Virus record (IMG/VR): IMGVR_UViG_3300035698_018106
Coordinates: 166,717 to 230,716 of that record
DNA from: a virus
Reading direction: 5' to 3' (one strand)
Length of the DNA stretch: 64,000 bases
Made by a program: the position numbers and the translations under genes
Notes under the pieces: generated by a model
What the model was told of the DNA's origin: nothing
Seen by the model: the letters and a program-made list of their open reading frames with translations, nothing else
Databases searched by the model: none
Shown: piece by piece, positions 11,384 to 38,802 of the stretch
Layout: every line of letters begins with the position of its first letter
Position numbering within the stretch: the first letter of the stretch is position 1

Positions 11384-12280
11384 TTATTTTAATTTACTTA
11401 GACACCAATCAATTAATGGGTTTCCTGTTTCTTTTGAATAATCTGGATCTTGTCCATTTATAATTGGATTTAGGATTTTTTTATATTTTTCTAATATATT
11501 TCCATATTCATCAACTACTGGTTCAGATAATAAAGGGAGGGAATTTGATTTAAATTCTGATCTTTCACAAAAATTAGGTCCAACCATTTTATTAATTAAA
11601 TCATAATGTCTTTCATATACATGCATTGAATGACTTATATGAGTATAAGAACCCATTTTCAAATCTTTATAATATTCTTTTAAATGCAAAAATACATGAT
11701 AATGTAGAACGCTGAAAAAGGCCCAATCTGTCATAAAACCATATATCACATCATTACTTCTCATAGATAATGTCATATGTAATTTATTTTCTCTAATATG
11801 GAATAAAGATTGTAAAGTACATACTTGATCTTTATTTTCTAGAAACTGATGAGAAGGTTTATTATAATGCATGAATGCTTGTCTAGAATCTTTATCTTTT
11901 TTAAGAGATGCTATCACCCAGTTATACTGGGTGAATCCATGTTCATTCTTTTCACTGAATAATAGATTACCATAAGAACTATTTACTGTACCATCAGCGT
12001 TATGTAGTGACTTCCATAAACCTGCATATTTTTCAATATAAGTAGGGTTATTTGTTCCACTAAAATACCATAATAATTCTGCCGCTATATATTTTAATGG
12101 AGAACTTCTATATTTATTTTCATAAATATTTTCTAATGGATTTTCTATTTCCATAGCACAATCTCTTATTTCTTTAACTTCTTGTCCTCTTGGAGATATT
12201 ATGAAATCCGGATCAAGTAATATACTTTCTAAAACTAATTCAAATACCTTTGTTATGTTTTCTCCTGAATAATATCTCAT
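11384..12280 (-). CDS. deoxycytidylate 5-hydroxymethyltransferase (T4 gp42-like, thymidylate-synthase fold)
   Basis: HYNKPSHQFLENKDQVCTLQSLFHIRENKLHMTLSMRSNDVIYGFMTDWAFF aligns with T4 gp42 YTRPSMQFDYNKDGMSDFMCTNTVQYLIRDKKINAVVNMRSNDVVFGFRNDYAWQ. The catalytic Cys is present. Asp lies 31 residues after the Cys, matching the Asp179 specificity position of dCMP hydroxymethylase. Confidence 0.7.
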   Translation of the reverse strand: MRYYSGENITKVFELVLESILLDPDFIISPRGQEVKEIRDCAMEIENPLENIYENKYRSSPLKYIAAELLWYFSGTNNPTYIEKYAGLWKSLHNADGTVNSSYGNLLFSEKNEHGFTQYNWVIASLKKDKDSRQAFMHYNKPSHQFLENKDQVCTLQSLFHIRENKLHMTLSMRSNDVIYGFMTDWAFFSVLHYHVFLHLKEYYKDLKMGSYTHISHSMHVYERHYDLINKMVGPNFCERSEFKSNSLPLLSEPVVDEYGNILEKYKKILNPIINGQDPDYSKETGNPLIDWCLSKLK

Positions 12281-12804
12281 TTATATAAATTTTTGTGAAT
12301 TTTTGAACAATATTTAATTTGTAATTTACAATCATCAATTGCATTATGAGCCACACCTTTGTTCTCTTTAACTATATCTTTTTTAATTATAGGATTCAAA
12401 TATACTAAAGTTCTCACATCTAATTCGTTTCTAAAATCCCATGGAATGTTAACATTTATTTTATTATAAGCATCTGATAATAATCCAAGATCAAACCTAG
12501 CACTATTACCCCAAACATAATCTTTTTCATTAATAAATTCACTTAAATGAAACAAAACCGAATGTAAACCACCTTGATCTTTTTTAAGTGCATCTCTCGC
12601 TGACCCACTTTGTGATAACCACCATTGAATAGTTTTTCCAGAGACTTTTAATCCCATATCTAAACATGTATCTATATCTATGTTTTTGTAAAATTCTTCA
12701 CCTGTTTCGCCTGTTTCTAAATTAAAACGTACTGCACCTATCGATATAATTACTGAATTACTCTGAGTGCCCAAAGTTTCAATATCTAACATTATGTGAT
12801 TCAT
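12277..12804 (-). CDS. DnaQ-like (DEDDh) 3'-5' exonuclease, T4 dexA-like
   Basis: LDIETLG N-terminal motif and C-terminal VAHNAIDDC; KVSGKTIQWWLSQSGSARDAL resembles T4 dexA HRLFTKSTIEWWKNQSPEARKNI. Confidence 0.65.
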   Translation of the reverse strand: MNHIMLDIETLGTQSNSVIISIGAVRFNLETGETGEEFYKNIDIDTCLDMGLKVSGKTIQWWLSQSGSARDALKKDQGGLHSVLFHLSEFINEKDYVWGNSARFDLGLLSDAYNKINVNIPWDFRNELDVRTLVYLNPIIKKDIVKENKGVAHNAIDDCKLQIKYCSKIHKNLYK

Positions 12805-12816
12805 TATTATTTGTTT

Positions 12817-13560
12817 TTATATGTCTATTATATTTCCTAAATTACCTTTTATTTTACTTTCTTCGAAACCCCCTATCATCTCTGGTTTATTTATTATATC
12901 TATTCTTGAATCATCATTATAATACATATATGTATTTCCTTTAATAGAAAAAACTATATTATCAAAATTCTTAGATTTAAATATATAATTACCACTTATT
13001 CTAGAAGTTCCTATACATATTGCATCTACTTGATTCAAACAATTTGTATTTTTGAAGCAAACTTTATTATTTTTTAATATAGAATCAATCAATAAGAATT
13101 TATTACAGTATAAAGAGAATATTACTGCATCTTTATCTTTATTATCTTCTTCTTTTATTAATAAAATTTCTAATTTCTTATTTTTCCTTCTATATACAGT
13201 ATATGTATCATTTGTTTGTTTATCATGCAACACCTGTCCGGGGTAAATCTCAGATTGATCTAGATCACTTGCATTAGTTGATGAACATTTATCTTCATGT
13301 GGCAATATATGATCTTTAATACGAGACAAACTTCTACTAGGATTCTCTTTTTCCATAGCTAATCTCCTTAAATAACGTGTTTTTAAGCTTTGCGAAGAAA
13401 TTGGATTTCTTCGATCATCTAACATCTCTTCTCTTCGCAATTCAGCTCCGGAATGGATATCAAGTTTATTTGCTTTATCTACTAAAATATCCATATAGCT
13501 ATTATGTTTTTTTACTTTATCTCCTAAATAAGAGCTAAATTTATCATATTGATCACCCAT
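12817..13560 (-). CDS. hypothetical protein
   Basis: ORF only. Confidence 0.35.
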   Translation of the reverse strand: MGDQYDKFSSYLGDKVKKHNSYMDILVDKANKLDIHSGAELRREEMLDDRRNPISSQSLKTRYLRRLAMEKENPSRSLSRIKDHILPHEDKCSSTNASDLDQSEIYPGQVLHDKQTNDTYTVYRRKNKKLEILLIKEEDNKDKDAVIFSLYCNKFLLIDSILKNNKVCFKNTNCLNQVDAICIGTSRISGNYIFKSKNFDNIVFSIKGNTYMYYNDDSRIDIINKPEMIGGFEESKIKGNLGNIIDI

Positions 13561-13561
13561 T

Positions 13562-14611
13562 TTATTTTAAATCATTTATCATCATTTTACTTACCAACTC
13601 TTTAAATGAAGTTAATGGAGACCATCCTAATTCATCTTTGGCTTTTAAATTTTGTCCTATTAATAATTCAACTTCTGCAGGTCTATAGAATTCAGGATTA
13701 ATATTTATTAAAACTATATTATTATACATTAATTTTTCTGATAATCGTGATCCTGTCCATTTGACTTTTCCATTAAATGGGGTGTGTTTAATAGCTTCAT
13801 CAATAAATTCTTTAATTGTATGAGTTTCATTTGTAGATAATACAAAATCATCAGCTTTATCATGTTGTAACATCCTCCACATTCCTTCTACATAATCAGG
13901 AGCATATCCCCAATCTCTTTTAGCATATATATTTCCTAATGATATTGGATCTATAACTTGTTTTTGTTCGGATACTAATTGATAGCTTTTAGATAATTTA
14001 GATAATCCTAGTGTTATTTTTCTAGTTACAAAATTACTACCTCTTCTTTCACTTTCATGATTAAATAATATTCCATTAGAAATAAACATACCATAAGATT
14101 CTCTATAATTTTTTGCAATCCAATAAGAGTATAATTTTGCAATCCCATAAGGAGATCTTGGATAAAAAGGTGTGGTTTCACTTTGAGGAGTTTCTCTTAC
14201 TTTACCGAATAATTCTGAAGTACATGCATTATATAATTTTGCTTTAGGAGCAAATTTACGAATAGATTCTAATAAACTTAAAGTTCCTACTGCATCAACA
14301 TCTGCTGTATATTTTGGAATTTGAAATGATATATGGACATGTGATTGTGCTGCTAAATGATATATCTCATCCGGAATAACTTTTTGCATAACATTATCTA
14401 ATCCAATTGGATCTGTCATATCTCCAAAATGCAAATTAAAATTTTCATTCTCAAAGATATGATTTAATCTTTGAGTATTAAAAGAAGAAGATCTTCTTAC
14501 TATTCCATGTACTTCATAACCTTTATTTAATAAAAGTTCTGCAAGATACGATCCATCTTGTCCAGATACACCTGTGATCAGTGCTTTTTTCTTGTATTTT
14601 TCTAATTTCAT
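13562..14611 (-). CDS. gmd: GDP-mannose 4,6-dehydratase
   Basis: ALITGVSGQDGSYLAELLLNKGYEVHGIVRRSSSFNTQRLNHI, ...TTPFYPRSPYGIAKLY...FNHES..RG..FVTRKIT, and ...FYRPAEVELLIG match the GMD family (E. coli Gmd) along the whole length. Confidence 0.85.
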   Translation of the reverse strand: MKLEKYKKKALITGVSGQDGSYLAELLLNKGYEVHGIVRRSSSFNTQRLNHIFENENFNLHFGDMTDPIGLDNVMQKVIPDEIYHLAAQSHVHISFQIPKYTADVDAVGTLSLLESIRKFAPKAKLYNACTSELFGKVRETPQSETTPFYPRSPYGIAKLYSYWIAKNYRESYGMFISNGILFNHESERRGSNFVTRKITLGLSKLSKSYQLVSEQKQVIDPISLGNIYAKRDWGYAPDYVEGMWRMLQHDKADDFVLSTNETHTIKEFIDEAIKHTPFNGKVKWTGSRLSEKLMYNNIVLININPEFYRPAEVELLIGQNLKAKDELGWSPLTSFKELVSKMMINDLK

Positions 14612-14620
14612 TATATTAGT

Positions 14621-15214
14621 TTAATTTTTTTTATTTATAAATTCTAAAACCTCATTAAAAATAATATCTTTATCTCTATATGAATCTCCTTCATTAACTG
14701 TTATTAATTTCTTATTTGGTATTAAGCTTATTGAATGTGCTTCTTTAAATAATCTAAGTTCTTTTGATTTATCTTCTATATTTTGTGAAAAAGATTCACC
14801 ATCTTCTTGTGCTAAGAAAAATCTAGGAGATGCAGTAAGAGTAATTAAATATTGATCTGTTTCTCTATTTCTAGATTCAAACGTTTTTATCATTTCAATA
14901 ACATCTGATTTCTTTATACCTCTAAATAATTGAGAATATACATATTCACCTAAATGACTTCTATTCCAAATTAATATATTATCATGATACCCCCATTTAT
15001 CTCCATCTATACTTTCAGAAATGTGATTAGCAAATAACATTTCTTTATAAAAAACTTCAAATTGAAATTCTAATGTTTCTTTTATAGTTAGATTAGTTGG
15101 AGGTTTATCAAAATGTCTTATTGTAATATTATTATACTTATAATGTGCACAAAGACTTTCTAATATAGTATTTTTACCTAATCTATCTCCACCTTCAATA
15201 ATTATATGCTTCAT
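14621..15214 (-). CDS. P-loop nucleotide kinase-like protein (possible dNMP kinase)
   Basis: N-terminal IIIEGGDRLGKNT Walker-A-like motif; located between the hydroxymethylase and gmd genes. Confidence 0.35.
   Translation of the reverse strand: MKHIIIEGGDRLGKNTILESLCAHYKYNNITIRHFDKPPTNLTIKETLEFQFEVFYKEMLFANHISESIDGDKWGYHDNILIWNRSHLGEYVYSQLFRGIKKSDVIEMIKTFESRNRETDQYLITLTASPRFFLAQEDGESFSQNIEDKSKELRLFKEAHSISLIPNKKLITVNEGDSYRDKDIIFNEVLEFINKKN
14632..14639 (-). promoter_or_regulatory. T4-type late promoter box TATAAATA (minus strand), ~20 nt upstream of the gmd ATG
   Basis: Exact octamer (tatttata on the plus strand). Confidence 0.35.
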
Positions 15215-15241
15215 AATTCTATTTTATTTATTATATGGAAA

Positions 15242-15670
15242 TTATAATACATGGTTTTGCCAATGTCCGGTTGGATACGAATAATTTATATAAAATTTTA
15301 ATGTAGATTCATTTCCATTAATATTTCTATTAAAACATCCATAATAAGCATCTTCATCTCTAAATTGTTTAATATGCATATCATTCAATTCTTTCTTTAT
15401 AAACTCAGCTGCTTGTTTTTGATCTTCTGTTCCAATTACAGAGCTACCAACGATCCAAGGACAAATAGTATTTAAATAATTATTAGAATATTCTTTATCA
15501 GAATATTCTAATAATTCTGAATAGAACACAATTCCAATTGGTTGTGTTCTAAAATCTACATTCTTAACTATATAATGACTATCTTCTTGATTCCACCCAT
15601 AATCAATAAATTTACTAATAAAAATATTTAGTTGTTCATCTATATGTTCAGCAATATTTACTTTTTTCAT
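15242..15670 (-). CDS. hypothetical protein
   Basis: ORF only. Confidence 0.35.
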   Translation of the reverse strand: MKKVNIAEHIDEQLNIFISKFIDYGWNQEDSHYIVKNVDFRTQPIGIVFYSELLEYSDKEYSNNYLNTICPWIVGSSVIGTEDQKQAAEFIKKELNDMHIKQFRDEDAYYGCFNRNINGNESTLKFYINYSYPTGHWQNHVL

Positions 15671-15891
15671 AATTGTATTGTATCTAATCCTTCATTATTA
15701 AATGGTACAAAAACTGTATATTGACCATATATCCAACCACCTGGGACTCTTGTTATTCTGTAACCATTTATATCTAAACACATATCATTTAATTTTAATT
15801 TATACATTTCTTTAGTAACACTAGATGGTGTTAGATTATTAGATCTTGCTGACTCTGGTTTTGGTGGTGGAATATCTGGTAGATGTCTCAT
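15667..15891 (-). CDS. hypothetical small protein
   Basis: ORF only. Confidence 0.3.
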   Translation of the reverse strand: MRHLPDIPPPKPESARSNNLTPSSVTKEMYKLKLNDMCLDINGYRITRVPGGWIYGQYTVFVPFNNEGLDTIQL

Positions 15892-15899
15892 GTTTTAAA

Positions 15900-16454
15900 T
15901 TATTTCGTTAATATACTTAAAAAATTCTTTGCAGCTTGATTAGCTATTTTATGTATATCTTCTCTATTTTTATATGATTTTTCATTTCTATCATATTCAT
16001 CTTTAAATGCCATTGCTATATTAGCTTGCCATCCCATATAATAGTCTGTATCATTTTTCATTTCTGTAGTAATTATACCTATTGCTTCTTTTATATCAGG
16101 TTTAATTTCTATAAAAGTTTCCAATTTATTACAAATTGAATCTTTAAAATGATCTACATCATCTAATGTTTTTATTGTAATATTATCTTTCTTAGAAAAC
16201 AAATCATTTAAAACAGTAAAATCTAGAACACGATTAATATGTCCAAAGAATATTTGTCGCTGTGAAACATTTGACCATTCATTTGCACTACTATATCCTT
16301 CATATTTTGCAACTCTAAGAATTAAATATGATAGATCTTCATTTTCTTTATAATAATAATTATTTGGCATTGACCAATTAAAAAATAAGTTATCTTCTTT
16401 AAAGATTTTATTTAAATCATTACATAGTTTTGTTATTGATATTACATTTTTCAT
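15900..16454 (-). CDS. hypothetical protein
   Basis: ORF only. Confidence 0.35.
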   Translation of the reverse strand: MKNVISITKLCNDLNKIFKEDNLFFNWSMPNNYYYKENEDLSYLILRVAKYEGYSSANEWSNVSQRQIFFGHINRVLDFTVLNDLFSKKDNITIKTLDDVDHFKDSICNKLETFIEIKPDIKEAIGIITTEMKNDTDYYMGWQANIAMAFKDEYDRNEKSYKNREDIHKIANQAAKNFLSILTK

Positions 16455-17680
16455 TAAAATAATTGTTTAGATTTAATTCCTATATATTTTATATTATCTT
16501 GCATCATGAATTCATGGTTTGAAAATTGTCTTTCTCCTTTGATAATAGCAACTGCCTCTGAAATAATATCTTTACTTGTAGTTACCGGACAATTTTGCGG
16601 AATTTTACTATAATCTTTAGGGCCAGTTATTTCGAAATCATGTGGCATGCCCATCATGTGCATATATTCTCTGATGTTTATTCGTCTATCTTCTGTAGGA
16701 TGAACATTTCTTTCCATCATTTCTCCTACCACTGCATATATATGATTTTTATCTATGCATAAAACTCTATGAGATAATCTAAAGTTTTTACCCATCCCTA
16801 ATTTTTTTATCACATGATCAATATCTTTCTTAGATGCTGGATGAGCATCAGGTAAACTATATACATACTCTCTATATTGTTCAATTAAACCATTGCGATT
16901 TAAAAAATCATATGATGTTAAATGTTCTTTAGTTTTTATAAATTCTTCTCTCCATTTATCTCCATATATTTTTTCACAAAATTTCACAATTTCAAAATCT
17001 TTGATAAATGGTTCTTTTGTTGAATACTCGTTTTGCATTGATGCACACTCTGGGATCATCTTGAGGTATTCTGATACACTTAAATGTTCTTTATTATAGT
17101 AATCTAATATAGGAGCTTTATTTCCTTTAACGAACACTATATAAGTTCTAGGACGTCTTTGAGGAATGCCATGTAATAAAGTATCTGTTTTATAAAAAGT
17201 ACAAGCATAACCATTAGATTTAGCCTTTTCCATTAATTGGCTTCTTACATATTCTCCAACACCAGTAAATAAAGTCGGTGCATTTTCATATACATATATT
17301 TTAGGTTGTATGACACCTAAAATGAAATCTGCTGCTTTGTACATCCAATCATTAACTGGAGATTTTGATCTGGCACCTTTAGCTAGATTTCCAGACATTG
17401 AAAGGCCAGCACATGGAGGAACCCCATGTACAATATCTAATTCTCCAACAATATTTTTAATATCGGAATATTTACTTTCATCAATTTTGTCTAATTGGTA
17501 ATAAGTTGGATATATGTCATGTTGAGCAAGATAATTTAGATATAATTTATCGTTCTCAAAAAAAGGGGAGTATGAAAAAATGGCTTTTGGAGGGTTTTGA
17601 AGTATTTCAGTTGCTGCAATAGAAAAGCCTCCTATTAATGGTATTATTGCAGCATGATTTAATTTTTTTGATTTTAACAT
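16454..17680 (-). CDS. DNA (cytosine-5)-methyltransferase-like protein
   Basis: Motifs appear in canonical order. Motif I-like is PLIGGFS; motif IV (PC) is GVPPCAGLS; motif VI (ENV) is YENAP; motif VIII (QxRxR) is QRRPRTY; the C-terminal motif-X-like sequence is QNCPV. Confidence 0.6.
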   Translation of the reverse strand: MLKSKKLNHAAIIPLIGGFSIAATEILQNPPKAIFSYSPFFENDKLYLNYLAQHDIYPTYYQLDKIDESKYSDIKNIVGELDIVHGVPPCAGLSMSGNLAKGARSKSPVNDWMYKAADFILGVIQPKIYVYENAPTLFTGVGEYVRSQLMEKAKSNGYACTFYKTDTLLHGIPQRRPRTYIVFVKGNKAPILDYYNKEHLSVSEYLKMIPECASMQNEYSTKEPFIKDFEIVKFCEKIYGDKWREEFIKTKEHLTSYDFLNRNGLIEQYREYVYSLPDAHPASKKDIDHVIKKLGMGKNFRLSHRVLCIDKNHIYAVVGEMMERNVHPTEDRRINIREYMHMMGMPHDFEITGPKDYSKIPQNCPVTTSKDIISEAVAIIKGERQFSNHEFMMQDNIKYIGIKSKQLF

Positions 17681-25701: not shown

Positions 25702-26760
25702 ATGGAATTAATATACGATCGAAAAAAATATCATAAAACTATATCAGTAGATTTTGACGATACTTTATGCATTACTACTACTAGGGATTGGAAAAGTGCC
25801 GAACCACAATTCCCAATTATTAACAAAGTAAATTTATTATATGAACAAGGATGGCAGATTTTAATTATCACAGCTAGAGGTCAATTATCATGTGAAGGGG
25901 ACACTAAAAAGGCTGATAAAAAATATAGAAAAAATATAGAATCTTGGTTATCTAAACATTCTGTAAAATACCATCATTTGAGTTTTGAAAAGTATTTAGC
26001 ATCATATTATCTGGATGATAAAGCGCTGAATTTAGAAGATTTTGTTGATCTAGAAATAAGAGAAATAAAAACTGGGTGGTCAGGAGCTAAGGTAGAAAAA
26101 AGAGGTGATAGAATATTCAAAACACATCATGATTCAATTGAAGCTGCTAATTGGTATAATATGGCAGCACCTCTAATTAATGTGCCGATTGTTCACTCTA
26201 TGATAGGAGAGACACTATCTCTTGAATATCTTGAGGATAATGGAAAATATTTCAAAATAGATGATATCAATGATGCAATAACTAAATTTTCTCTTTATAA
26301 AACAAATATAGAATTTTCTACTTATGTTGAAAAAATGAGAAAACATTATAAATCAAATGAAGATTTTTATGAAGTAGATGATTTATTAAATGCCGAGGAT
26401 ATTTATATTCATTGTAATAACAAGTCTACATTTATGCATGGTGATCTTTCGTTAGAAAATGTAATTCAAACCAATGATGGACTATATTTTATAGACCCAA
26501 TATATAAAGAAAATGAATGGTCTTCTTATTTATTAGACATATCTAAAATGCTCCATTCATATAGAAAATATAATCGTATGTTTGAATATGAAGTATTTTT
26601 ACAGGGTTGGGTCAAAAAAGGATTAGATGAATTTATTCTCCGTTTATTAGAACTTACTCAATGGATACGTGTATTAAAATATATCAAAGATCCAATAGTT
26701 AAAAAAGATATGACAGAAAAAACAAAATCATTATTAAAGGAAGTCTTAGAAAACAAATAA
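25702..26760 (+). CDS. bifunctional HAD-superfamily phosphatase / APH(ChoK)-type kinase (putative sugar-phosphate kinase/phosphatase)
   Basis: N-terminus VDFDDTL (DxDxT HAD motif I); C-terminus HGDLSLENVI (HGDLxxxN kinase catalytic loop) followed by IDP. Confidence 0.5.
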   Translation: MELIYDRKKYHKTISVDFDDTLCITTTRDWKSAEPQFPIINKVNLLYEQGWQILIITARGQLSCEGDTKKADKKYRKNIESWLSKHSVKYHHLSFEKYLASYYLDDKALNLEDFVDLEIREIKTGWSGAKVEKRGDRIFKTHHDSIEAANWYNMAAPLINVPIVHSMIGETLSLEYLEDNGKYFKIDDINDAITKFSLYKTNIEFSTYVEKMRKHYKSNEDFYEVDDLLNAEDIYIHCNNKSTFMHGDLSLENVIQTNDGLYFIDPIYKENEWSSYLLDISKMLHSYRKYNRMFEYEVFLQGWVKKGLDEFILRLLELTQWIRVLKYIKDPIVKKDMTEKTKSLLKEVLENK

Positions 26761-27084: not shown

Positions 27085-27747
27085 ATGCTAGAAATAAAAC
27101 AATTAGAAGACGTCTTAAATTCTAAAAATTTTCCAGGGAGAGATATTAATATAAAAGTTAAAGAATTAATCGAGAATAGACAAACATTTACTTCGATAAT
27201 TAGTCCTGATGCTATTAATTCTCTTAAAGCTTATGGGATTAATGCAAAAGAATTAATCGATAACCATATGATAGATACATTAATTGATAATATCTATCGA
27301 TATATTTCGCAAAGATCTTTTGAAAATCCGGCAGTAACTAAGAAAATTAAAGATACCAAAGATGTTAAAAATCTAATAGACACATTAAATAACAAAAAAG
27401 GTTTTGCTATTACTAATGTACAAACGGCCACAATGTTACAAGACCATCCATCTTTTGTACATACTTATTTAAATTCTGAATATGGAAATTCTTTTTATAA
27501 ATTAGGTAAATTTAATAAAGTATCTATATATGTAGATGCAAATATGATATGGGATGATAATAAGATATGCTATATATCTGATGATTTTTATAATTTCAAT
27601 GTTTTATCTATTGATATAATAGCCGAAAGTACATACACACCTAAATATAAAATTACTTTATTTTATACTGAAAATCCAAAAAATAATGAAGTATATAATT
27701 TAACGTTAAAAACACCTTTTATACCTTTTATATATGAACATATTTAA
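27085..27747 (+). CDS. truncated paralog of the major capsid protein C-terminal region
   Basis: KGFAITNVQTATMLQDHPSFVH...NSFYKLGKFNKVSIYVDANMIWDDNKICYISDD matches the C-terminus of this window's own capsid protein (ANFIVTNLKLATALQTNSQYTF...GSLYPLGTIAGMTVYVDPNMVYEDTRVLVGRKG) and of T4 gp23. Confidence 0.5.
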   Translation: MLEIKQLEDVLNSKNFPGRDINIKVKELIENRQTFTSIISPDAINSLKAYGINAKELIDNHMIDTLIDNIYRYISQRSFENPAVTKKIKDTKDVKNLIDTLNNKKGFAITNVQTATMLQDHPSFVHTYLNSEYGNSFYKLGKFNKVSIYVDANMIWDDNKICYISDDFYNFNVLSIDIIAESTYTPKYKITLFYTENPKNNEVYNLTLKTPFIPFIYEHI

Positions 27748-28201
27748 AGCAATATCAGACTTAAAAAAAGATGGTAAAATCATTGGGTTTACTGCATCAA
27801 CATTTGACCTATTACATGCCGGCCATGTAATAATGTTAGATGAAGCCAAAACCCAATGTGATTTTCTAATAGTAGGTTTATTAACAGATCCTACTAAAGA
27901 TAGAGATACCAAAAATGCTCCAATCCAAACAACATGGGAAAGATGGATACAAACTCAAGCTCTTGGATCTATTGATACTATCATTCCTTTTGATACTGAA
28001 GAGGATTTAGAAAATATGATTAAAGTTCTCAAACCTGATGTCAGATTTGTTGGGGATGAATATAAAAATACTAAACATACTGGTCATGATATTAAAGGCG
28101 TTAATATCATATATAACAAAAGAGAACATAATTACGGATCCACTCAATTAAGAAATAAAATATATAATCAAGAATTACCTAATCATTTAATTAAGAAATA
28201 A
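27734..28201 (+). CDS. cytidylyltransferase-family nucleotidyltransferase (TagD/RfaE-domain-II-like)
   Basis: GFTASTFDLLHAGHVIMLDEAK...FLIVGLLTD (HxGH motif). Confidence 0.6.
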   Translation: MNIFKAISDLKKDGKIIGFTASTFDLLHAGHVIMLDEAKTQCDFLIVGLLTDPTKDRDTKNAPIQTTWERWIQTQALGSIDTIIPFDTEEDLENMIKVLKPDVRFVGDEYKNTKHTGHDIKGVNIIYNKREHNYGSTQLRNKIYNQELPNHLIKK

Positions 28202-30822: not shown

Positions 30823-32259
30823 ATGCAAAAAAATAAATACGAAGGATTACGAATTGCTAACATTGCTGCGCAGGGTGCAGATGGCTGTGGTGTTCAAGCT
30901 GGCTCTAAACAATTAATGATTTGGGCTAAAAAGAATAATGTAACAGTAGATTACTATGCATATAATAGAAAATATACAAGATCAGATGGCCATGATATGC
31001 CAATTAATTATTTCGGAATATCAAAAAAGAAGAAAGATAAAGATTTAAAGGGACTTAGAGAAACAGCTGAATATATTAATGATAATTATGATATTGTAAT
31101 GTTCATGAATTATCCAAATGCTAAATCGGATCCAGAAGTATATAAAGGATTTTATTTTGATTTTTTCGAAGTTATTCAAAAACCCCAGAAAGCGTTGTAT
31201 ATTCATGAGATAAGAGGTGCTCAATTTAATAGATTAGCTTATATAGTTCCAATGATTGTTAATTCTGATATAGTATTTCATTTTGAAACTACAACTACTC
31301 TTGCTACATTAATAGATAAAATTGGATTGCAAAAGAGATTTGAGAGATTACATAAATATACCCTTTGGATGGATTTCGATGACCTTGACCAATGGAGAAA
31401 TAAGTATATTAATAACAAACAATTGGGTGTATCTAGTGTCACTAGATGGTCATCTAGTAAGAATGTAAGGCGGACGATAGATATCATGGATGAAGTTCAA
31501 CAATTAAAACCTGATTGGGACTGTCAAATACATGGAATTGAAAGATCTATGGGGGCTAAGATTGATGTTTTAGATTATCCAAAGACAATTTACGTAAATC
31601 CAAATGGGAAAAAAGATAATGAATATCATGGTTGTGTATTAGTATCAGGACCAGTTGATAGAAATATTGGAGTTGATATTGTATCATCGCATATGTTTTC
31701 TACTGCATTTTGGAGTATGCCAAGAGATCCAGAGAATTATGGAAATAGAATGGAGTATACTCAAATTGAAATTATAGGAGCAGGCACAATCCCAATTCTA
31801 GATAAGCATTGGGGAGAAAATAATAGAACAAGAGATGGTAAACGATATATTGATATACCTTATTCAGCTGTATATACTGACGGTAATGATCTTAAAGGGA
31901 TTGCAGAAACGCTAATTAAAATAGCTAATGATAAAGAATTAAGGCAAAAATATCTAGATACAGCATATTCATTAGTAGTACAAGAATTTGGAGCAGATAC
32001 TATTATACCTGAAGCTATTGATATGATTCAAAGTGTTGGTAAGAATAAAAAAATAATGGATATCAAAGAAATAAGTAAAACTTTCATGAATGATACTTTT
32101 GCCGAAGAAATTTCTAAATTAGAATTAAAAGGAAAACAACCTGTTTATAATATAGATTCTTTTCTTAATGGAAAGATAAGTATATTAGAAAATAAGAAGG
32201 AAGTTTTTATTAAGAAAATCAAGAAAACCACCGGTGGAAAAACTAAATCTTTATTTTAA
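30823..32259 (+). CDS. hypothetical protein (possible glycosyltransferase)
   Basis: Long ORF in the glycosyltransferase island; no firm motif. Confidence 0.35.
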   Translation: MQKNKYEGLRIANIAAQGADGCGVQAGSKQLMIWAKKNNVTVDYYAYNRKYTRSDGHDMPINYFGISKKKKDKDLKGLRETAEYINDNYDIVMFMNYPNAKSDPEVYKGFYFDFFEVIQKPQKALYIHEIRGAQFNRLAYIVPMIVNSDIVFHFETTTTLATLIDKIGLQKRFERLHKYTLWMDFDDLDQWRNKYINNKQLGVSSVTRWSSSKNVRRTIDIMDEVQQLKPDWDCQIHGIERSMGAKIDVLDYPKTIYVNPNGKKDNEYHGCVLVSGPVDRNIGVDIVSSHMFSTAFWSMPRDPENYGNRMEYTQIEIIGAGTIPILDKHWGENNRTRDGKRYIDIPYSAVYTDGNDLKGIAETLIKIANDKELRQKYLDTAYSLVVQEFGADTIIPEAIDMIQSVGKNKKIMDIKEISKTFMNDTFAEEISKLELKGKQPVYNIDSFLNGKISILENKKEVFIKKIKKTTGGKTKSLF

Positions 32260-32873: not shown

Positions 32874-33599
32874 ATGAATATAATAAACCAGAGATTTGAT
32901 AAAGTTGTATGTATAAATCTTATTAATAGACCTGATAAGAAAAAGAACATGCAAGAGAAGTTTGATAAATTAGGAATAGAAGTAGAATGGTTTGACGCAG
33001 TGCCTTATGGTTTTGCGAAAGATATAGTTGATTCTTTACCTAATATGAATACATCTAATACTTTTCCTAGATTTAATAAGAAAACACCTAATGAATTTGG
33101 TGCTAGTATGTCTCATTACACTGTGATAAAAACAGCTTTATTACAAGGTCACGATAATATCTTTGTTTTTGAGGATGATGTAATGTTTAGAAAAGACTTT
33201 AAAAAACATTTTGAACAATCTTATAACACATTACCTAAAAATTGGGATATGATTAATTTATATTCATTTATGTATAAAATTAATTCGGAAAATATTAGAA
33301 TAAATGCAAGATGGATTAAATCTTCTCAAGGATGGTCTTTAATGGCATATGGAATGAATAGAAAAGCTATGCTCAGATATATAGTAGAACAAGATAAATA
33401 CTTCCGGATTGCAGATTTAGTTTCATATGAGATGCAAAATAAAGACTTAAATATATATTCAGCTATACCTACTCTTGCTGTACCTAATCAATCATTAGGA
33501 AGTAATATAAGAGAAAATATGAATTATGCTAAAACTAGTGCAGCCGTACAAGCTACTACTGTATTAAATATGGGTTATGGTAATGAAAATTATGAATAA
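32874..33599 (+). CDS. glycosyltransferase family 25 (LPS-biosynthesis Lic2B/LgtB-like)
   Basis: FDKVVCINLINRPDKKKNM...LGIEVEWFDAV, GASMSHYTV and IFVFEDD are typical of GT25. Confidence 0.55.
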   Translation: MNIINQRFDKVVCINLINRPDKKKNMQEKFDKLGIEVEWFDAVPYGFAKDIVDSLPNMNTSNTFPRFNKKTPNEFGASMSHYTVIKTALLQGHDNIFVFEDDVMFRKDFKKHFEQSYNTLPKNWDMINLYSFMYKINSENIRINARWIKSSQGWSLMAYGMNRKAMLRYIVEQDKYFRIADLVSYEMQNKDLNIYSAIPTLAVPNQSLGSNIRENMNYAKTSAAVQATTVLNMGYGNENYE

Positions 33600-33811: not shown

Positions 33812-34723
33812 ATGTCTAGTATACAAGAAGCTTATCAATCTAAGATTAACAAAAGAAAAAAATTAAATGGTACATTAAAAATTGCATATGCTAATTTTTG
33901 GCCAGAATGGAATGAAGAAAATTTCATAAAACCAATTCTTAATTATCATTTTAACGTTGTAATAGATCAAAAAAATCCTGATGTAGTTTTTCATTCTATA
34001 TTTGGTGGATTAAATGAAGTATCTAAATATACTAAAGCAAAGAAAATATTATTTTTAGGAGAAAATCACCGACCTAAAAAATATGGATCTGATTATTCTA
34101 TATCTTTTGATCCTACTTCAGATACAAATTTTAGACTTCCATTATGGCAAGCATATATGTTTTTAAACTCTGGATATTTTAATAGATTATTTAAAAGAGA
34201 AAATATAGGATTGTTTGATAGATTTTGTTCTTTTACTGTTTCAAATCCGGCTAATTTTATGAGAAATAGTATGTATCAGCAAATGAATTCATATAAACGA
34301 GTTCACTCATATGGTAGATATTTACCTAATGATCAAGGATTACAAAATGCATCTAAAGGAAATTATTGGAGAGATGTAAAAGATAAATTTTTCCAAGAAA
34401 ATACTCATAAATTTGCTATAACATACGAAAACTCTCCTTATCCTGGCTACACAACAGAAAAATTAATGGATGCTTTCTTGGTAGGTTCAATGCCAATATA
34501 TTGGGGCGATCCTAAAGTTAAAGAAGATTTTAATGAAAAAGCTTTTATTAATGTTAGCGATTATGGAGGTAATTTAATGAATGTAATTAAAAAAATGGAT
34601 ACTGATAGAGATGTATTTGATGCAAAATACAATCAGCCAGTTTTTACTGATTTACAAAAAGATAAATTTTTAAATAATTTAAACGAATTCGAAAATTGGT
34701 TAGTTAATAACATAAAAAAATAA
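33812..34723 (+). CDS. alpha-1,3-fucosyltransferase (GT10)
   Basis: KFAITYENSPYPGYTTEKLMDAFLVGSMPIYWG matches the GT10 signature FxLxFENS...GYxTEK(L/F)xDA...G.PIY.G. Confidence 0.6.
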   Translation: MSSIQEAYQSKINKRKKLNGTLKIAYANFWPEWNEENFIKPILNYHFNVVIDQKNPDVVFHSIFGGLNEVSKYTKAKKILFLGENHRPKKYGSDYSISFDPTSDTNFRLPLWQAYMFLNSGYFNRLFKRENIGLFDRFCSFTVSNPANFMRNSMYQQMNSYKRVHSYGRYLPNDQGLQNASKGNYWRDVKDKFFQENTHKFAITYENSPYPGYTTEKLMDAFLVGSMPIYWGDPKVKEDFNEKAFINVSDYGGNLMNVIKKMDTDRDVFDAKYNQPVFTDLQKDKFLNNLNEFENWLVNNIKK

Positions 34724-34727
34724 AACA

Positions 34728-35497
34728 ATGATAAAAATTAATAAAAATAATATAAGCTTTTTTGTTTCACCTGACACAATACATTTAGAATGGTTTACTA
34801 AAAGATATCAAGATTGGGAACCAAATTCTTTTGATATAATAAAGAAATTTATTGAGCCATCAAAAACTTTTATTGATATAGGAGCACATATAGGGTTGAT
34901 ATTATTATATGCTGCCCCTTTCTTTAAAAAAATATTGGAATAGAATGTGATCCTGTCGCTTTTGATTCATTAAAGAAAAATATAGATATGAACTTTTTCA
35001 AAAATAAAGTATTTTTAGAAGAAGTAGCTATTAATGACAAAGAAGAAGATGTTTTCATTGGAGCAGCAGGAAGATCTGCTAAATGGGGAGGAAGTGGTAT
35101 AGCTTTTGATAATTCTGGAATTAATACGAAAAAAGTTAATGGAGTTTCTATTGATTATATAGAAGAAAAATATAGTTTAGATAATGTTGGTTTAGTTAAA
35201 ATCGATATTGAAGGAGGTGAAGCTAAAGTGTTAGAAAGTATGAAATTTTTCTTTATCCGTCATCAAGCTAATATGTTTTTATCTTTACATCCGCATTTAA
35301 TGAGTATTGATAATATCGAAAAAACAATTGATGATATATATGATACATTTAATTATGTTTATGATGATAAGTTACAGTTAATGGAACGAGAATTTGCTAT
35401 TAATAAATATATCAATAATAAAAAACTTATAGAATTAGGTAAAATGAATAGTAGTGAACATCAAGAAATAATTGGAACATTTTCTAAAATTAAATAA
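34728..35497 (+). pseudogene. FkbM-family methyltransferase split by a 1-nt frameshift in an A7 run (ORFs 34728..34943 and 34988..35497)
   Basis: The N-terminal part carries FIDIGAHIG; the C-terminal part carries VKIDIEGGEAKVLE. Reading from 34934 in the second frame gives IGIECDPVAFDSLKKNIDMNFF, and an 8th A would fuse the two ORFs. Confidence 0.55.
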
Positions 35498-35513
35498 AAA
35501 GTATAATTAAATA

Positions 35514-36344
35514 TTGATAACAAAATTAAAAATACATGATATGAAAAAGCCGATTATAATAACAGCTTTTAATGATAATCCAACTTATTATTCTTTCGTT
35601 GAATCATCATTTAAAATGTGGAAAAAGTTTGGATATAATATTAAAGCCGCTTATATTTCTAATAATCATAATCCTGAAGTTATTAAAAATACAGAAAAAT
35701 ATGGTGAAATAATTAAATATCCAAATATAAATGGTATTGAATCAGGAGTTCAAAGTAAAATATCTAGAATGATATTAGCGTCAGAACAATCTTATTTTTG
35801 GATTGTTGATATTGATTGGTATATTTTAAATATTAATTGGTTTGAGGAAAAATTTAAACTTTTTAATGGCATGAATATAGTAGCCCAGGATGTATATGGT
35901 GGTAATAATACAGATTCTACTAAATGGCCAATGTGGAGTAATTTTGGATCAGGAAATAAACTTAAAGAAATTATTAATCCAAATAACTTAAATTACGAAG
36001 AATTAATTAAAACTTGGCAAAATATTGGATCTAAATTTGATATTATGGAAGATGTTAATAATTCATTTAAACAATTTTCAGATGAATCATTAATGAGAAG
36101 ATTATTTAATGATGCTAACTATGATATTAAAAGATATAAAAGAATGGAGCCTAATATATTTAATAGTCATGTAAATAGTCCATTGTATTATAGAAATGTA
36201 TGGAGACGTATTGATAGAGCTTGGAATTGGAATTATTATAAAGAAGATATAGAAAATGGACAATATTTAGATTGTTTTCCAAAGAGACCTTTAAATAAAA
36301 AAGATCATGTAATATCTGAAATTTTTAAATACATTGATATATGA
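35514..36344 (+). CDS. hypothetical protein (possible glycosyltransferase)
   Basis: ORF only. Confidence 0.35.
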   Translation: MITKLKIHDMKKPIIITAFNDNPTYYSFVESSFKMWKKFGYNIKAAYISNNHNPEVIKNTEKYGEIIKYPNINGIESGVQSKISRMILASEQSYFWIVDIDWYILNINWFEEKFKLFNGMNIVAQDVYGGNNTDSTKWPMWSNFGSGNKLKEIINPNNLNYEELIKTWQNIGSKFDIMEDVNNSFKQFSDESLMRRLFNDANYDIKRYKRMEPNIFNSHVNSPLYYRNVWRRIDRAWNWNYYKEDIENGQYLDCFPKRPLNKKDHVISEIFKYIDI

Positions 36345-37030
36345 TACAGCCAACAGCAGTTTTAAACTTAGAAAGAGGTAAATCTCGCAAAGCATTAATG
36401 TCCAAACAACTAGATGCTAAAGGTATACCATACTTTTTCTTTCCTGCATTTGATGGGAAGGATATTATTAATTTTTCTGTACATGGACATATTACTTATG
36501 GGTCAGGTATAGGTAGAAAATTTAATCCAGCAGAAATAGCAATTACAAATGGACATATGTCTGTTATAAAACATGCTGAAGTTATGAATTATGATCATAT
36601 TATAATTCTAGAAGATGATATAGTTGTTTGTGATGACTGGAATAAAAGAATAAATTGGATTTTAGAAAATGTTCCAGAAGATTGGGACTATATCTATTTA
36701 TCAGGTCATTCTGATTATATAAAAATCCCAATCTTTGAAGAACCAAACATAATAAAAGCTCCGAAAATGGTTGGAGCTTTTTCATATATTGTTAATAAGA
36801 AAGCCTATTCTAAAATTACAAAATTTTGTAGTTCATATATCACTACATATGATGATATGATTATGCATATGATTGATTTAGGCAAAATAAATGGGTATTT
36901 GGCACTTCCTTTTTTAACATTTCATGATGCAAATGAATCAATGATATGGCAGGAAGATCCATTAAAATATAAAAAGAATGATAATGATCATCATTCATCA
37001 TATAAATATTTTAGAAATAATATATTATGA
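36341..37030 (+). CDS. glycosyltransferase family 25
   Basis: AVLNLERGKSRKALMSKQL...GIPYFFFPAFDG, ITNGHMSVIKH and IIILEDD. Confidence 0.5.
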   Translation: MIQPTAVLNLERGKSRKALMSKQLDAKGIPYFFFPAFDGKDIINFSVHGHITYGSGIGRKFNPAEIAITNGHMSVIKHAEVMNYDHIIILEDDIVVCDDWNKRINWILENVPEDWDYIYLSGHSDYIKIPIFEEPNIIKAPKMVGAFSYIVNKKAYSKITKFCSSYITTYDDMIMHMIDLGKINGYLALPFLTFHDANESMIWQEDPLKYKKNDNDHHSSYKYFRNNIL

Positions 37031-37728
37031 CCGAAATTTTTATTTACCATCATATGGGATTAGGTGATTATTTAATATTAAATGGATTTGTCAGAAATGT
37101 AGCAGAATCTTATGATAGAATATGGTTATTCGCGAAACCTGGTAATGAATCAAAAAATATTAGGAGGTTATATAAAGACAATAAAAAAATAATTATCATA
37201 TCTTTAAATGATAAAGAAGTTCATGATTATATGAGAATATTCGCCTTTAATAATTATATGGTAGTTGGCCATACTCCTGATTTTTTTAAAAGAGTAGATG
37301 ATCCAACAAATGGGAAAACTTTTGATGAGTTATTTTTTGAAGATCACAATATACCATTTGAATATAAATGGGATAAATTTCATTATGAACGAGATTTAGA
37401 AAAAGAAAAAGAAGTGTTCTATGATATATTAGGATTAGATGATAAATCAGAGTTTAATTTTATTCATGAAAACAAAGTCAGACCGGTTATAAGAGGAATT
37501 GATAGAAATATAATGGCTATACATCCAGATAATCCAGCCATAAGTATATTTGATTATCTTTATACTATTGAAAAAGCAAAAGAAGTTCATGTAATGAATA
37601 GTTCTTTTATGAATTTAATAGATTGTATTCAATTAAGACAAGGTGGATTGTTTTATCATGAGTATAGCCGGCCAGGAATTAATACTAGGTTAAGATTACC
37701 ATGGAAAGTATTTACAGTAAAACTATGA
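37027..37728 (+). CDS. hypothetical protein
   Basis: ORF only. Confidence 0.35.
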   Translation: MTEIFIYHHMGLGDYLILNGFVRNVAESYDRIWLFAKPGNESKNIRRLYKDNKKIIIISLNDKEVHDYMRIFAFNNYMVVGHTPDFFKRVDDPTNGKTFDELFFEDHNIPFEYKWDKFHYERDLEKEKEVFYDILGLDDKSEFNFIHENKVRPVIRGIDRNIMAIHPDNPAISIFDYLYTIEKAKEVHVMNSSFMNLIDCIQLRQGGLFYHEYSRPGINTRLRLPWKVFTVKL

Positions 37729-37756
37729 TAAAAATTTAACATATAAAAATAAAACA

Positions 37757-38769: not shown

Positions 38770-38802
38770 TTACGCCAAAGTCCAATCAAATAACCCGAAT
38801 AT

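Follow-up and report, generated by a model that had tools for sequence, protein, structure and literature searches.

A predicted T4-type hydroxymethylcytosine gene set and a mobile GDP-mannose dehydratase share one gene block in an uncultured giant phage

Does the gene block at 11384–17680 of an uncultured, giant, AT-rich phage constitute a single operon for DNA hypermodification, in which a GDP-mannose 4,6-dehydratase (GMD) supplies a deoxyhexose for 5-hydroxymethylcytosine (hmC)? Such an operon had been proposed in a sequence-only reading on the basis of five genes for a dCMP hydroxymethylase, a DexA-like exonuclease, GMD, a P-loop kinase and a C5-methyltransferase-like protein, all of which are present and co-directional on the minus strand (Table 1) of the analysed window, a 64-kb stretch corresponding to only about one quarter of the genome, which spans roughly 260 kb or more. 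Part of the block recurs identically on two independent ENA contigs, and the sequence is therefore regarded as real. The block is a mosaic rather than an operon dedicated to a single pathway. In the explanation we favour as probable, two systems meet here: a conserved cytosine-replacement core is combined with a GMD from a mobile sugar-gene pool, which is uncoupled from the hydroxymethylase and functionally belongs with a hypervariable glycan cluster at 25.7–40.4 kb. Domain identities, the active-site signature and synteny with its variation were computed; from these we infer each enzymatic step and the glycan acceptor.

Table 1. Features of the gene block and of the sugar cluster in the window
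Feature	Position	Strand	Basis
dCMP hydroxymethylase (5hm-dCMP synthase), T4 gp42 type, predicted	11384..12280	-	Pfam Thymidylat_synt, E 1.5e-23; best PDB match T4 dCMP hydroxymethylase 1b49, E 6e-23; signature residues
DexA-like (Rv2179c-like) DEDDh 3'-5' exonuclease	12277..12804	-	PF16473, E 1.4e-51; T4 DexA, 25% identity, full length, E 2e-10
247-aa protein, no assigned function	12817..13560	-	occupies GDP-L-fucose synthase (GMER) position of relatives
GMD, mobile member of glycan-gene pool	13562..14611	-	TIGR01472, 453 bits (NCBIfam equivalog cut-off 415); solved GMDs (PDB), E 3e-112
Thymidylate-kinase-like nucleotide kinase, conserved hydroxymethylase partner	14621..15214	-	weak dTMP-kinase matches (below cut-off), consistent across Pfam, PHROG and NCBIfam
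Three small ORFs, no assigned function	15242..16454	-	Pfam/PHROG searches
C5-cytosine DNA methyltransferase, subfamily recurrent beside TS and AGT genes	16454..17680	-	PF00145, E 1.3e-20
HAD sugar-phosphate phosphatase fusion (AfhF/RB69 gp51 type), first sugar-cluster gene	25702..26760	+	phrog_1238, E 1e-19; RB69 gp51, 32% identity, E 2e-11; PDB 1xpj, E 1e-11, and 9iqw, E 3e-7
Small nucleotidyltransferase, HldE/TagD type	27734..28201	+	PF01467, E 6e-12; phrog_7878, E 6.5e-32; rfaE_dom_II, 77 bits, below cut-off; PDB matches are cytidylyltransferases
Possible GT-B glycosyltransferase, 416 aa	28706..29956	+	Glycos_transf_1 only, weak, E 9e-4
Full-length T4 DNA alpha-glucosyltransferase (AGT) homologue, predicted hmC-DNA glycosyltransferase	30823..32259	+	phrog_2888, E 2.7e-69, residues 9-403; T4 AGT in PDB, E 5e-11, residues 9-402; T4 a-gt, BLASTP, 23% identity, E 7e-13
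GT25 glycosyltransferase	32874..33599	+	PF01755, E 8e-14
GT10 alpha-1,3/4-fucosyltransferase homologue, likely GDP-fucose-pathway consumer	33812..34723	+	FucT_N, E 8e-15; GT10, E 7e-13
Distal, hypervariable part of glycan cluster	34988..40409	+	two FkbM methyltransferases (first frameshifted), second GT25, DUF6165, several unknowns

The enzyme with the thymidylate synthase (TS) fold matches true ThyA structures with E values of 2e-11 or worse, and no NCBIfam ThyA model exceeds 62 bits, the cut-offs being 108–427. When the enzyme was aligned (MAFFT) to E. coli ThyA, T4 gp42, RB69 gp48 and SPO1 gp29, the catalytic cysteine noticed before corresponds to Cys154, and the residue at Cys+31, which had been read as Asp and not Asn, is Asp185 and aligns with E. 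coli N177 and T4 D179. Cys154, Asp151, Asp177 and Asp185 (E. coli L143, D169 and N177 for the three aspartates) are identical to T4 gp42. Every full-length relative in the alignment has this Asp (a single fragmentary sequence failed to align), so that it does not stem from a chance substitution. Evaluated by the criteria of PMC13326640, the residues E58, W80, Y94, L143D, C146, H147T, C168N, D169 and N177D are common to the window enzyme, T4 gp42 and all AGT-adjacent TS homologues found. This T4-type hydroxymethylase signature supports the prediction of hmC, and the Asp kept at the D169 position suggests hmC rather than 5-hydroxycytosine. That the enzyme instead forms the 5-methyl-dCMP of XP12, the 5-hydroxy-dCMP of RB69 or plain dTMP appears very improbable. 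The family is functionally plastic, D169N alone separating hydroxylases from hydroxymethylases, and in cyanophage S-TIM61 a relative combines N177D with Cys, not an acidic side chain, at the L143 position, which places other products nearby in sequence space. However, a hydroxylase is disfavoured by Asp instead of Asn at the D169 position, which also distinguishes the window enzyme from those of the arabinosyl-5-hydroxycytosine clusters of RB69, DLP3 and HY126 (PMC13326640), a methylase by the Asp that replaces a hydrophobic residue at the L143 position, and dUMP as substrate by Asp instead of Asn at the N177 position; the ThyA equivalog models remain far below cut-off, and the AGT homologue requires a hydroxyl acceptor. 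The signatures of 5-hydroxy-dCMP synthase and of ThyA are both absent. Product predictions from few residues have failed before in TS homologues: hydroxymethylase was for a long time the annotation of 5-hydroxy-dCMP synthases.

The P-loop protein, previously described as nucleotide kinase-like, contains the Walker A motif GGDRLGKNT and belongs with the hydroxymethylase by synteny. Its gene is found on the upstream side of the TS gene in L003–L006 and L047–L049 (immediately upstream in L006, elsewhere with only variable inserts between), immediately upstream in the distant 462-kb phage LR756500, and a homologue adjoins the AGT gene in L024. The kinase family is related to RB69 gp45 with a probability of 88.6% (hhalign), and a thymidylate-kinase-like kinase adjoins the TS homologue in the RB69-type clusters as well. 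The C5-methyltransferase, whose fold had likewise been recognised, has intact PC, EN and RxR motifs (PC, EN, RxR and HP..E are invariant) and is also tied to the hydroxymethylase by synteny: its gene is contiguous with those of the kinase and TS in L047, L048 and L049, relatives down to 48% identity, and homologues stand beside AGT and/or TS genes in L007, L010, phage G and L018–L023, an arrangement seen in three other phage lineages, Bacillus phage G included. The conserved unit across the relatives is the C5-methyltransferase, the thymidylate-kinase-like kinase and the hydroxymethylase. Around this unit, the exonuclease, correctly identified as DexA-like, has a homologue in L005 and none in the fetched stretch around the TS gene of L003, L004, L047, L048 and L049; it varies among relatives and is probably not modification-specific. 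The 247-aa product gave no match in Pfam and PHROG searches, and only the 142-aa product among the small ORFs between kinase and C5-methyltransferase is conserved, in L047.

The core resembles the T-even hmC system (gp42, gp1 kinase, gp56 dCTPase, alpha- and beta-glucosyltransferases) in its gp42 active-site signature, the full-length AGT homologue and the DexA homologue, and the phage genome also encodes a gp23-type capsid protein and a prohead protease. It deviates by sequence identities of just 23–30%, by a kinase that is not gp1-like, by the C5-methyltransferase as part of the conserved core, and by an AGT gene preceded by phage sugar-activation genes and followed by further glycosyltransferases. 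Neither a dCTPase, a T4 gp1-type dNMP kinase nor a beta-glucosyltransferase was found in the window, about one quarter of the genome; complete cytosine replacement is therefore only a possibility. The conserved linkage of the C5-methyltransferase is not explained by our reading of the core, as fully hmC-substituted DNA offers this enzyme no substrate. A C5-methyltransferase and DNA glycosyltransferases are likewise united in the post-replicative 5mYOX/TET pathways, with LPS-enzyme-related glycosyltransferases and sugar-tailoring genes nearby (PMC8256090; Pyle et al., bioRxiv 2023.12.21.572611). In contrast to these, a search of the window gave no TET/5mYOX gene, and hmC is predicted to originate from the nucleotide pool via the TS homologue, so that no role is obvious for the methyltransferase.

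The AGT homologue, which had been overlooked, heads the 15-kb sugar cluster. In Bacillus phage G (JN638751; locus around gp306) and in the T4-like marine contigs L018–L023, AGT homologues are clustered within a few kb with an hm-type TS, a kinase, a HAD protein, a nucleotidyltransferase and a homologous C5-methyltransferase; unlike the window, these loci are compact and devoid of GMD, GT10, GT25 and FkbM genes, and a literature search gave no experimental characterisation of them. The full-length AGT homologue makes glycosylated hmC a well supported prediction and independently strengthens that of hmC DNA. That all genes of the sugar cluster, the AGT homologue among them, serve the glycosylation of virion proteins or of the host envelope, with bare hmC or hmC plus 5mC in the DNA, is unlikely. 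This alternative would fit the capsid module adjoining the cluster in the window, L044–L046, L052 and L053, the capsid-like paralogues within the cluster and the identity of only 23% to T4 AGT; virion glycosylation by phage clusters of glycosyltransferases and methyltransferases is known in mycobacteriophages and chloroviruses. However, the characterised members of the AGT family are DNA glucosyltransferases only, the PDB search yielded T4 AGT alone, and the homologues in phage G and L018–L023 reside in replication/nucleotide modules with an hm-type TS and no capsid genes near. Moreover, type IV restriction classically targets hmC that is not glycosylated.

The GMD is full-length, as stated before, and its adjacency had been taken as a hint of coupling to hmC synthesis within a single operon. 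This view is not sustained by the relatives. GMD and GMER are both inserted between kinase and TS in L003, L005 and L047, GMER alone is kept there in L004, and neither is found in L048 and L049. In L052 and L053, GMD lies within the glycan cluster beside a NUMOD3 endonuclease, a homing endonuclease adjoins GMD in three relatives, and GMD was not seen adjoining AGT or TS in any other lineage examined. At the TS locus, GMD is a variable insertion, usually accompanied by GDP-fucose synthase. To the earlier question of a GMER encoded elsewhere, the answer is twofold: no gene or remnant exists anywhere in the 64-kb window, so that GDP-fucose is not makeable from window genes alone, and relatives encode a 313-aa GMER at the position of the 247-aa protein. 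Most likely, GMD feeds the GT10 fucosyltransferase, the best cultured-phage match of which belongs to the GMD-GMER-fucosyltransferase operon of cyanophage S-SKS1. The clusters of this type in S-SKS1, S-SCSM1 and P-SSM2 contain GMDs 54–58% identical to that of the window and many glycosyltransferases and methyltransferases; in S-SCSM1, GMD, GMER and GT10 cluster together (PMC9602691), and the authors regard such genes of large cyanophages as cell-wall modification genes.

Which acceptor the fucose-type glycan has is to be judged from the sugar cluster, which comprises sugar-activation genes, the AGT homologue, GT25, GT10 and FkbM methyltransferases. The C-terminal half of its HAD fusion has very weak kinase-like similarity only (a weak RIO match), the nucleotidyltransferase is predicted to activate a sugar-1-phosphate or polyol-phosphate, and the possible GT-B enzyme is conserved in L009 and L047 (homologues 68–76% identical). 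GT25 adjoins AGT in L049, L050 and L051, and the GT10 gene overlaps its GT25 neighbour by 4 bp in L051 and lies close to GT25 in L050 and L053. The distal part, different in content in every relative examined, converges on the major capsid gene. The trio of AGT homologue, GT25 and GT10 kept in relatives makes a fucosylated glycan on hmC possible; to this extent the suggested deoxyhexose on hmC persists, albeit not by virtue of GMD adjacency. In an extended form, the whole cluster would act on DNA: AGT would attach a hexose to hmC, GT25 a beta-linked hexose and GT10 a GMD-derived fucose, possibly followed by FkbM methylation, generating a Lewis-type or 3-fucosyllactose-like glycan on cytosine. 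We consider this scenario conceivable but doubtful. On a glucosyl acceptor, the specificities canonical for GT25 and GT10 enzymes would be chemically coherent. The three enzymes form the retained core of a hypervariable cluster (window, L050, L051), and in L049 the AGT adjoined by GT25 is of a different subtype. Both observed genome arrangements (that of the window and that of L050 plus L048) have the cluster beside the C5-methyltransferase–kinase–TS block, which fits a closer functional tie than our main explanation assumes. None of the 20 cluster proteins has membrane segments, and Wzx, Wzy and an initiating transferase are all absent from the cluster. RB69, DLP3 and RL38JI provide a precedent, with NDP-sugar genes and several glycosyltransferases building tri-saccharides on cytosine, and LPS-enzyme-related DNA glycosyltransferases are known. 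The RB69, DLP3 and HY126 clusters (PMC13326640) share the AfhF-type HAD phosphatase, a nucleotidyltransferase and several glycosyltransferases with the window, which differs by the lack of an arabinose-5-phosphate isomerase, the HldE/TagD type of its nucleotidyltransferase and an AGT-like first glycosyltransferase. On the other hand, GMD shifts its position and is missing in some relatives that keep GT10 (L048/L050); cyanophages possess equivalent clusters, and the search of the phage collection for AGT homologues gave no cyanophage match; pathways for deoxy- and amino-sugars, a sulfotransferase, radical-SAM enzymes and a GT47 are additional genes of relatives, a content that is more surface-glycan-like; capsid protein and prohead protease paralogues occur inside the cluster, and most relatives have it converging on the capsid gene; and a survey of DNA glycosyltransferases does not mention fucose or GDP-sugars on DNA (Pyle et al., bioRxiv 2023.12.21.572611). 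A virion or host-surface glycan is at least as likely as a deoxyhexose on a DNA-borne glycan. We tentatively place the fucose-type glycan on a virion protein or the cell envelope, with a DNA-linked sugar as a possible but less favoured acceptor; a remaining share falls to both or to an undecidable assignment.

Consistent with these data we propose a scenario for the preferred two-system explanation: The TS-fold enzyme would convert dCMP and methylene-tetrahydrofolate into 5-hydroxymethyl-dCMP, by the mechanism of T4 gp42, in which water attacks the exocyclic methylene. The product might be phosphorylated by the adjacent thymidylate-kinase-like kinase and converted by a cellular NDP kinase to hm-dCTP, which the phage polymerase would incorporate. 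After replication, the AGT homologue would glycosylate hmC in DNA, maybe using an NDP-sugar that the phosphatase fusion and the nucleotidyltransferase nearby would provide. The C5-methyltransferase would most likely methylate cytosines escaping replacement, and the DexA-like exonuclease might be an optional nucleotide-salvage gene. Separately, GMD would form GDP-4-keto-6-deoxymannose, to be converted by a GMER, as encoded by the relatives, to GDP-fucose for GT10. As predicted from its genes, the phage carries a T4-type set for swapping cytosine for sugar-coated 5-hydroxymethylcytosine.

The window has a G+C content of 27% and originates from a large tailed phage encoding a gp23-type major capsid protein, a prohead protease and 11 tRNA genes. 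Relatives are found on metagenomic contigs of 130-405 kb, so that the 64-kb window constitutes only a fraction of the genome. The sequence-only reading had described a co-directional block at 11384-17680 as a candidate DNA hypermodification operon; its genes are present as described, in nine minus-strand ORFs, and domain searches agree (see the table). Part of this block is present identically on two ENA contigs, and a megablast search of 50,697 phage records retrieved no DNA-level relative of it. A SET-domain protein is conserved beside the C5-cytosine DNA methyltransferase (C5-MTase) block in each of the relatives compared (L004, L005, L047-L049 and L051). Genes for a patatin-like phospholipase, a calcineurin-like phosphoesterase and a CYTH-domain protein are located on the downstream side of the capsid module, and the region also encodes a guanylate kinase, which also occurs near the kinase-hydroxymethylase gene pair of phage LR756500. 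The tRNA genes are mixed with those of a Tpt1/KptA RNA 2'-phosphotransferase, a YqeY-like protein and an M23 peptidase. A lipoprotein-type signal, MKKVLNFILLVLLLVIVSCSS, in a 151-aa protein hints at a host with a Gram-negative- or Bacteroidota-style lipoprotein export pathway.

Positions, strands and database matches of features in the window
Feature	Position	Strand	Match or remark
Thymidylate-synthase-fold (TS) protein	11384-12280	minus	PF00303, E 1.5e-23
Rv2179c-like DEDDh exonuclease	12277-12804	minus	25% identity to T4 DexA
247-aa protein	within block	minus	no family match
GDP-mannose 4,6-dehydratase (GMD)	13562-14611	minus	TIGR01472; solved GMDs, E 3e-112
197-aa P-loop protein (kinase)		minus	dTMP-kinase matches below threshold in three libraries
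Three small ORFs	between P-loop protein and C5 DNA methylase	minus	no assigned function
C5 DNA methylase (C5-MTase)	16454-17680	minus	
151-aa protein	17942-18397		lipoprotein-type signal
SET-domain protein	20103-20777		E 3e-9
DUF7487 protein	24620-25540	opposite to sugar cluster	C2H2 zinc finger
Capsid-module paralogues	26763-27080, 27085-27747, 28203-28709		inside sugar cluster
AGT homologue	30823-32259	plus	phrog_2888, E 2.7e-69, residues 9-403
First FkbM methyltransferase	34750-35497		frameshifted
gp23-type major capsid protein	40810-42561		
Phospholipase, phosphoesterase, CYTH-domain protein, guanylate kinase	45208-47465, 50790-51278		
tRNA genes (11)	51576-63941		
Tpt1/KptA RNA 2'-phosphotransferase	55251-55775		E 5e-41
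M23 peptidase	62473-63414		
ATATATAAAATAAA/TATAAATAAA sites	6745-6760, 23790-23810, 42590-42600, 45050-45070	both strands at 23790-23810	probable late promoter

The TS protein survives as a predicted T4-type dCMP hydroxymethylase (5hm-dCMP synthase). Among solved structures, T4 dCMP hydroxymethylase matches it best (E 6e-23) and the CMP hydroxymethylase MilA comes next; true thymidylate synthases reach 2e-11 or worse and the NCBIfam ThyA models stay far below their cut-offs. Diagnostic positions of TS homologues have been tested (PMC13326640, 2026; E. coli numbering): N177D marks cytosine as substrate, an acidic residue at L143 gives hydroxymethyl and not methyl, and D169N characterizes a 5-hydroxy-dCMP synthase. 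When E. coli ThyA, T4 gp42, RB69 gp48 and SPO1 gp29 were aligned with the window protein by MAFFT, the catalytic Cys154 (E. coli C146) is invariant, and the Asp noticed 31 residues behind it is correctly placed as Asp185, equivalent to E. coli N177 and T4 D179, the cytosine specificity position, and kept in all full-length relatives aligned. Asp151 corresponds to E. coli L143 and T4 D145, the acidic residue which lets water reach the methylene intermediate; this assignment follows from its position relative to the Cys, as phmmer put a gap there. Asp177 retains E. coli D169, which is Asn in RB69 gp48, so that the dCMP hydroxymethylase prediction also holds under the newer hydroxylase criterion. 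T4 gp42 and the window protein are identical at 13 of 13 positions inspected, and the T4 residue pattern recurs in every full-length relative aligned as well as in all TS homologues adjoining genes for homologues of T4 DNA α-glucosyltransferase (AGT) elsewhere. A plain ThyA was rejected on the basis of Asp185 and the ThyA model scores, and a 5-hydroxy-dCMP synthase on the basis of Asp177. The annotated ThyA of S-TIM5-type cyanophages (L041, cyanophage S-TIM61, 5769-6605) carries Asp at N177 and Cys at L143, residues which would predict a dCMP methylase; a homologue of the window C5-MTase (29% identical; 8989-10206) lies 2.4 kb away.

The sequence-only reading was right to include the kinase and the C5-MTase because both travel with TS across relatives; C5-MTase, kinase and TS form the backbone of the window clade. 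The order is C5-MTase, a 140-aa ORF, kinase, a NUMOD3 endonuclease, GMD, GDP-fucose synthase (GMER) and TS in relative L047 (C5-MTase 67% identical), C5-MTase, endonuclease, kinase and TS on the 388-kb contig L048 (54%), and C5-MTase, kinase and TS in L049 (48%), a variant that the index of the assembly collection lists in 247 blocks. The kinase also lies directly upstream of TS in the distant 462-kb phage LR756500. The assignment of the kinase (14621-15214) is based on three profile libraries, synteny and hhalign: the dTMP-kinase matches are below threshold, the gene is kept next to TS and is not gp1-like, and hhalign (88.6%) indicates remote homology of the family to the thymidylate-kinase-like nucleotide kinase encoded in the RB69 arabinosylation cluster (gp45; PMC13326640). 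A PDB sequence search gave marginal thymidylate-kinase matches only (E 0.1). In the C5-MTase, the catalytic motifs IV (PC; P89-C90), VI (ENV; E132-N133) and VIII (RxR; R176/R178) are invariant in an alignment that includes an M.HhaI reference row, as are the residues H327-P328...E338 in the region of motifs IX/X, and the AdoMet-binding motif I (FxGxG) is degenerate (PLIGGFS), Gly18 being its sole invariant residue. Outside the clade, homologues of the window C5-MTase are encoded 1.5-3 kb from AGT homologues in the phage loci L007 and L010, in Bacillus phage G and in the T4-like contigs L018-L023, whose order is DNA polymerase ... TS, dCMP deaminase, TAGT, AGT, HAD, nucleotidyltransferase, C5-MTase and UvsX. 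Among the window ORFs of at least 100 aa, neither a TET/5mYOX partner of the C5-MTase nor a gp56-type dCTPase was found, the window being a fraction of the genome. Should the predictions hold, the question arises why pre-replicative 5-hydroxymethylcytosine (hmC) systems, that of Bacillus phage G included, retain a C5-methyltransferase.

The GMD scores above the NCBIfam equivalog cut-off (TIGR01472, 453 versus 415 bits). GMER (Fcl), which the sequence-only reading had proposed to seek elsewhere in the genome, is absent from the window, where tblastn found neither the gene nor a remnant and the Pfam scans showed no further SDR, and is encoded in the relatives L003-L005 and L047; the 4-keto intermediate would consequently depend on an enzyme encoded outside the window or supplied by the host. 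The 247-aa protein, which occupies the GMER position, was ruled out as a cryptic reductase, as it has neither a family match nor an SDR motif. At the TS locus, L003 and L005 carry kinase, GMD, GMER and TS, L004 carries GMER without GMD, and both are missing in L048 and L049. In L052 and L053 (GMD 69-70% identical) GMD is found inside the glycan cluster, beside a NUMOD3 homing endonuclease and among GT25s, a GT10 (L053), methyltransferases, an NDP-hexose 2,3-dehydratase and a DegT aminotransferase. The capsid gene is the point on which this cluster converges. The 388-kb relative (L048/L050) keeps GT10, and GMD is absent from both places examined. The closest GMDs in cultured phages are those of cyanomyoviruses and huge phages; the neighbours of the closest one (LR756501) are uninformative. 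In cyanophage S-SKS1, the phage protein that best matches the window GT10 is encoded in one operon with GMD and GMER; in S-SCSM1 such genes were taken as cell-wall modification genes (PMC9602691). With the window AGT as tblastn query, no cyanophage match was obtained in the phage collection. The variable position of GMD among relatives and the cyanophage gene clusters argue that its adjacency to the hydroxymethylase gene, from which the sequence-only reading had derived a possible decoration of hmC with a 6-deoxyhexose, is the incidental position of a mobile gene, and GMD is predicted to work with the glycan cluster that contains the fucosyltransferase. Where homing endonucleases abound, adjacency of genes is weak evidence for a common function.

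This 15-kb plus-strand cluster contains a full-length AGT homologue absent from the sequence-only reading. T4 AGT is its only PDB match (E 5e-11, residues 9-402; 23% identity by BLASTP), and it is predicted to be a DNA hmC glycosyltransferase. The first cluster gene is a fusion of an AfhF/RB69-gp51-type HAD phosphatase with a C-terminal half of very weak kinase-like similarity; an HldE/TagD-type nucleotidyltransferase is encoded near the cluster start, an arrangement which recalls part of the RB69 NDP-arabinose route. A possible GT-B enzyme, AGT, GT25, a GT10 fucosyltransferase, two FkbM methyltransferases and a second GT25 follow. Both the FucT_N and GT10 domains of the GT10 protein exceed gathering scores, which makes it a candidate GDP-fucose-dependent transferase. 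In the frameshifted first FkbM gene, the N-terminal part with the AdoMet motif FIDIGAHIG occupies another frame up to an A7 run near 34940, reflecting either a pseudogene or a sequencing error. The DUF7487 protein at the head of the cluster is probably a homing endonuclease; its homologues separate the C5-MTase gene from the kinase gene in L048 and GT25 from GT10 in the compared locus L015. Among the capsid-module paralogues, an MCP-like one resembles residues 389-550 of the gp23-type capsid protein (27-31% identity) and is split over two ORFs in the window, whereas L050 encodes it as one ORF of 334 aa (6726-7730); the other is a 168-aa copy of the prohead-protease domain (phrog_207, E 2e-17). 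The T4 late-promoter motif TATAAATA is not enriched (9 and 14 matches versus about 20 expected per strand in this AT-rich DNA). A longer motif, ATATATAAAATAAA or TATAAATAAA, recurs at a short distance upstream of several genes, those for the capsid protein and the prohead protease among them, and probably represents a T4-like late promoter; the timing of the sugar cluster cannot be read from ATATATAAAATAAA, and promoter timing was dropped as evidence.

The cluster might serve DNA as a whole: the phage hmC would then bear a branched, fucose-containing and perhaps methylated oligosaccharide, built in sequence by AGT, GT25 and GT10 with GDP-fucose provided via the phage GMD, and the conserved C5-MTase would be a further component of such nucleotide-pool hmC systems. 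Multi-sugar cytosine modifications (PMC13326640) and LPS-like DNA glycosyltransferases (PMC8256090; Pyle et al. bioRxiv 2023.12.21.572611) are established. AGT, GT25 and GT10 persist amid changing neighbours in the window, L050 and L051, and in L051 the GT25 and GT10 genes share 4 bp. In L049 GT25 has stayed beside an AGT of another subtype, and in two distinct genome arrangements the cluster adjoins the TS block. Its proteins also lack membrane segments (hydrophobic 19-mer >1.3 in 0 of 20), and components of lipid-linked glycan synthesis (initiating polyprenyl-phosphate transferase, Wzx/Wzy, ABC exporter, ligase) gave no Pfam match in it; variation of the glycan-tailoring genes between close relatives would fit selection on a DNA glycan by host defences. 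However, these variable genes look surface-glycan-like (sulfotransferase, radical-SAM enzymes, deoxy- and amino-sugar enzymes, GT47), the cluster is convergent with and next to the capsid module in most relatives and harbours paralogues of the C-terminal half of the capsid protein and of the prohead protease, and cyanophages possess parallel GMD-fucosyltransferase clusters. Neither fucose nor GDP-sugars are mentioned in the DNA-glycosyltransferase survey of Pyle et al. (bioRxiv 2023.12.21.572611). We consider a DNA-borne fucosylated glycan rather doubtful, and the stepwise assembled branched form unlikely.

The evidence best supports a model of a T-even-like hmC system that uses an AGT-type glycosyltransferase, every enzymatic step in it being inferred. 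An unusual core would consist of the C5-MTase, the thymidylate-kinase-like kinase and the hydroxymethylase, complemented by its own sugar-activation genes, with a mobile GMD of the hypervariable glycan cluster lying next to it. From the sequence-only reading, the gene observation, the predicted hydroxymethylase and the inclusion of the kinase and the C5-MTase are retained and the coupling of GMD by adjacency is given up. The predicted setting would differ from that in T-even phages by a thymidylate-kinase-like kinase, a conserved C5-MTase, sugar donors made by the phage and an AGT homologue heading a glycan cluster that varies in every relative. In cultured Bacillus phage G (L008/L017, JN638751, ca. 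213-235 kb), an hm-type TS, a kinase-UDG fusion, two AGT homologues, a HAD protein, an NTP-transferase, an HD protein and a C5-MTase are encoded within 17 kb. This gene content predicts glycosylated hmC DNA in phage G, for which a literature search found no report of DNA modification. If the prediction for the window is true, T-even-style hmC chemistry would occur in a widespread clade of uncultured AT-rich giant phages, whose enzymes, including a candidate DNA-directed GT25 and a candidate fucosyltransferase, would offer a set for probing how complex DNA glycans get.
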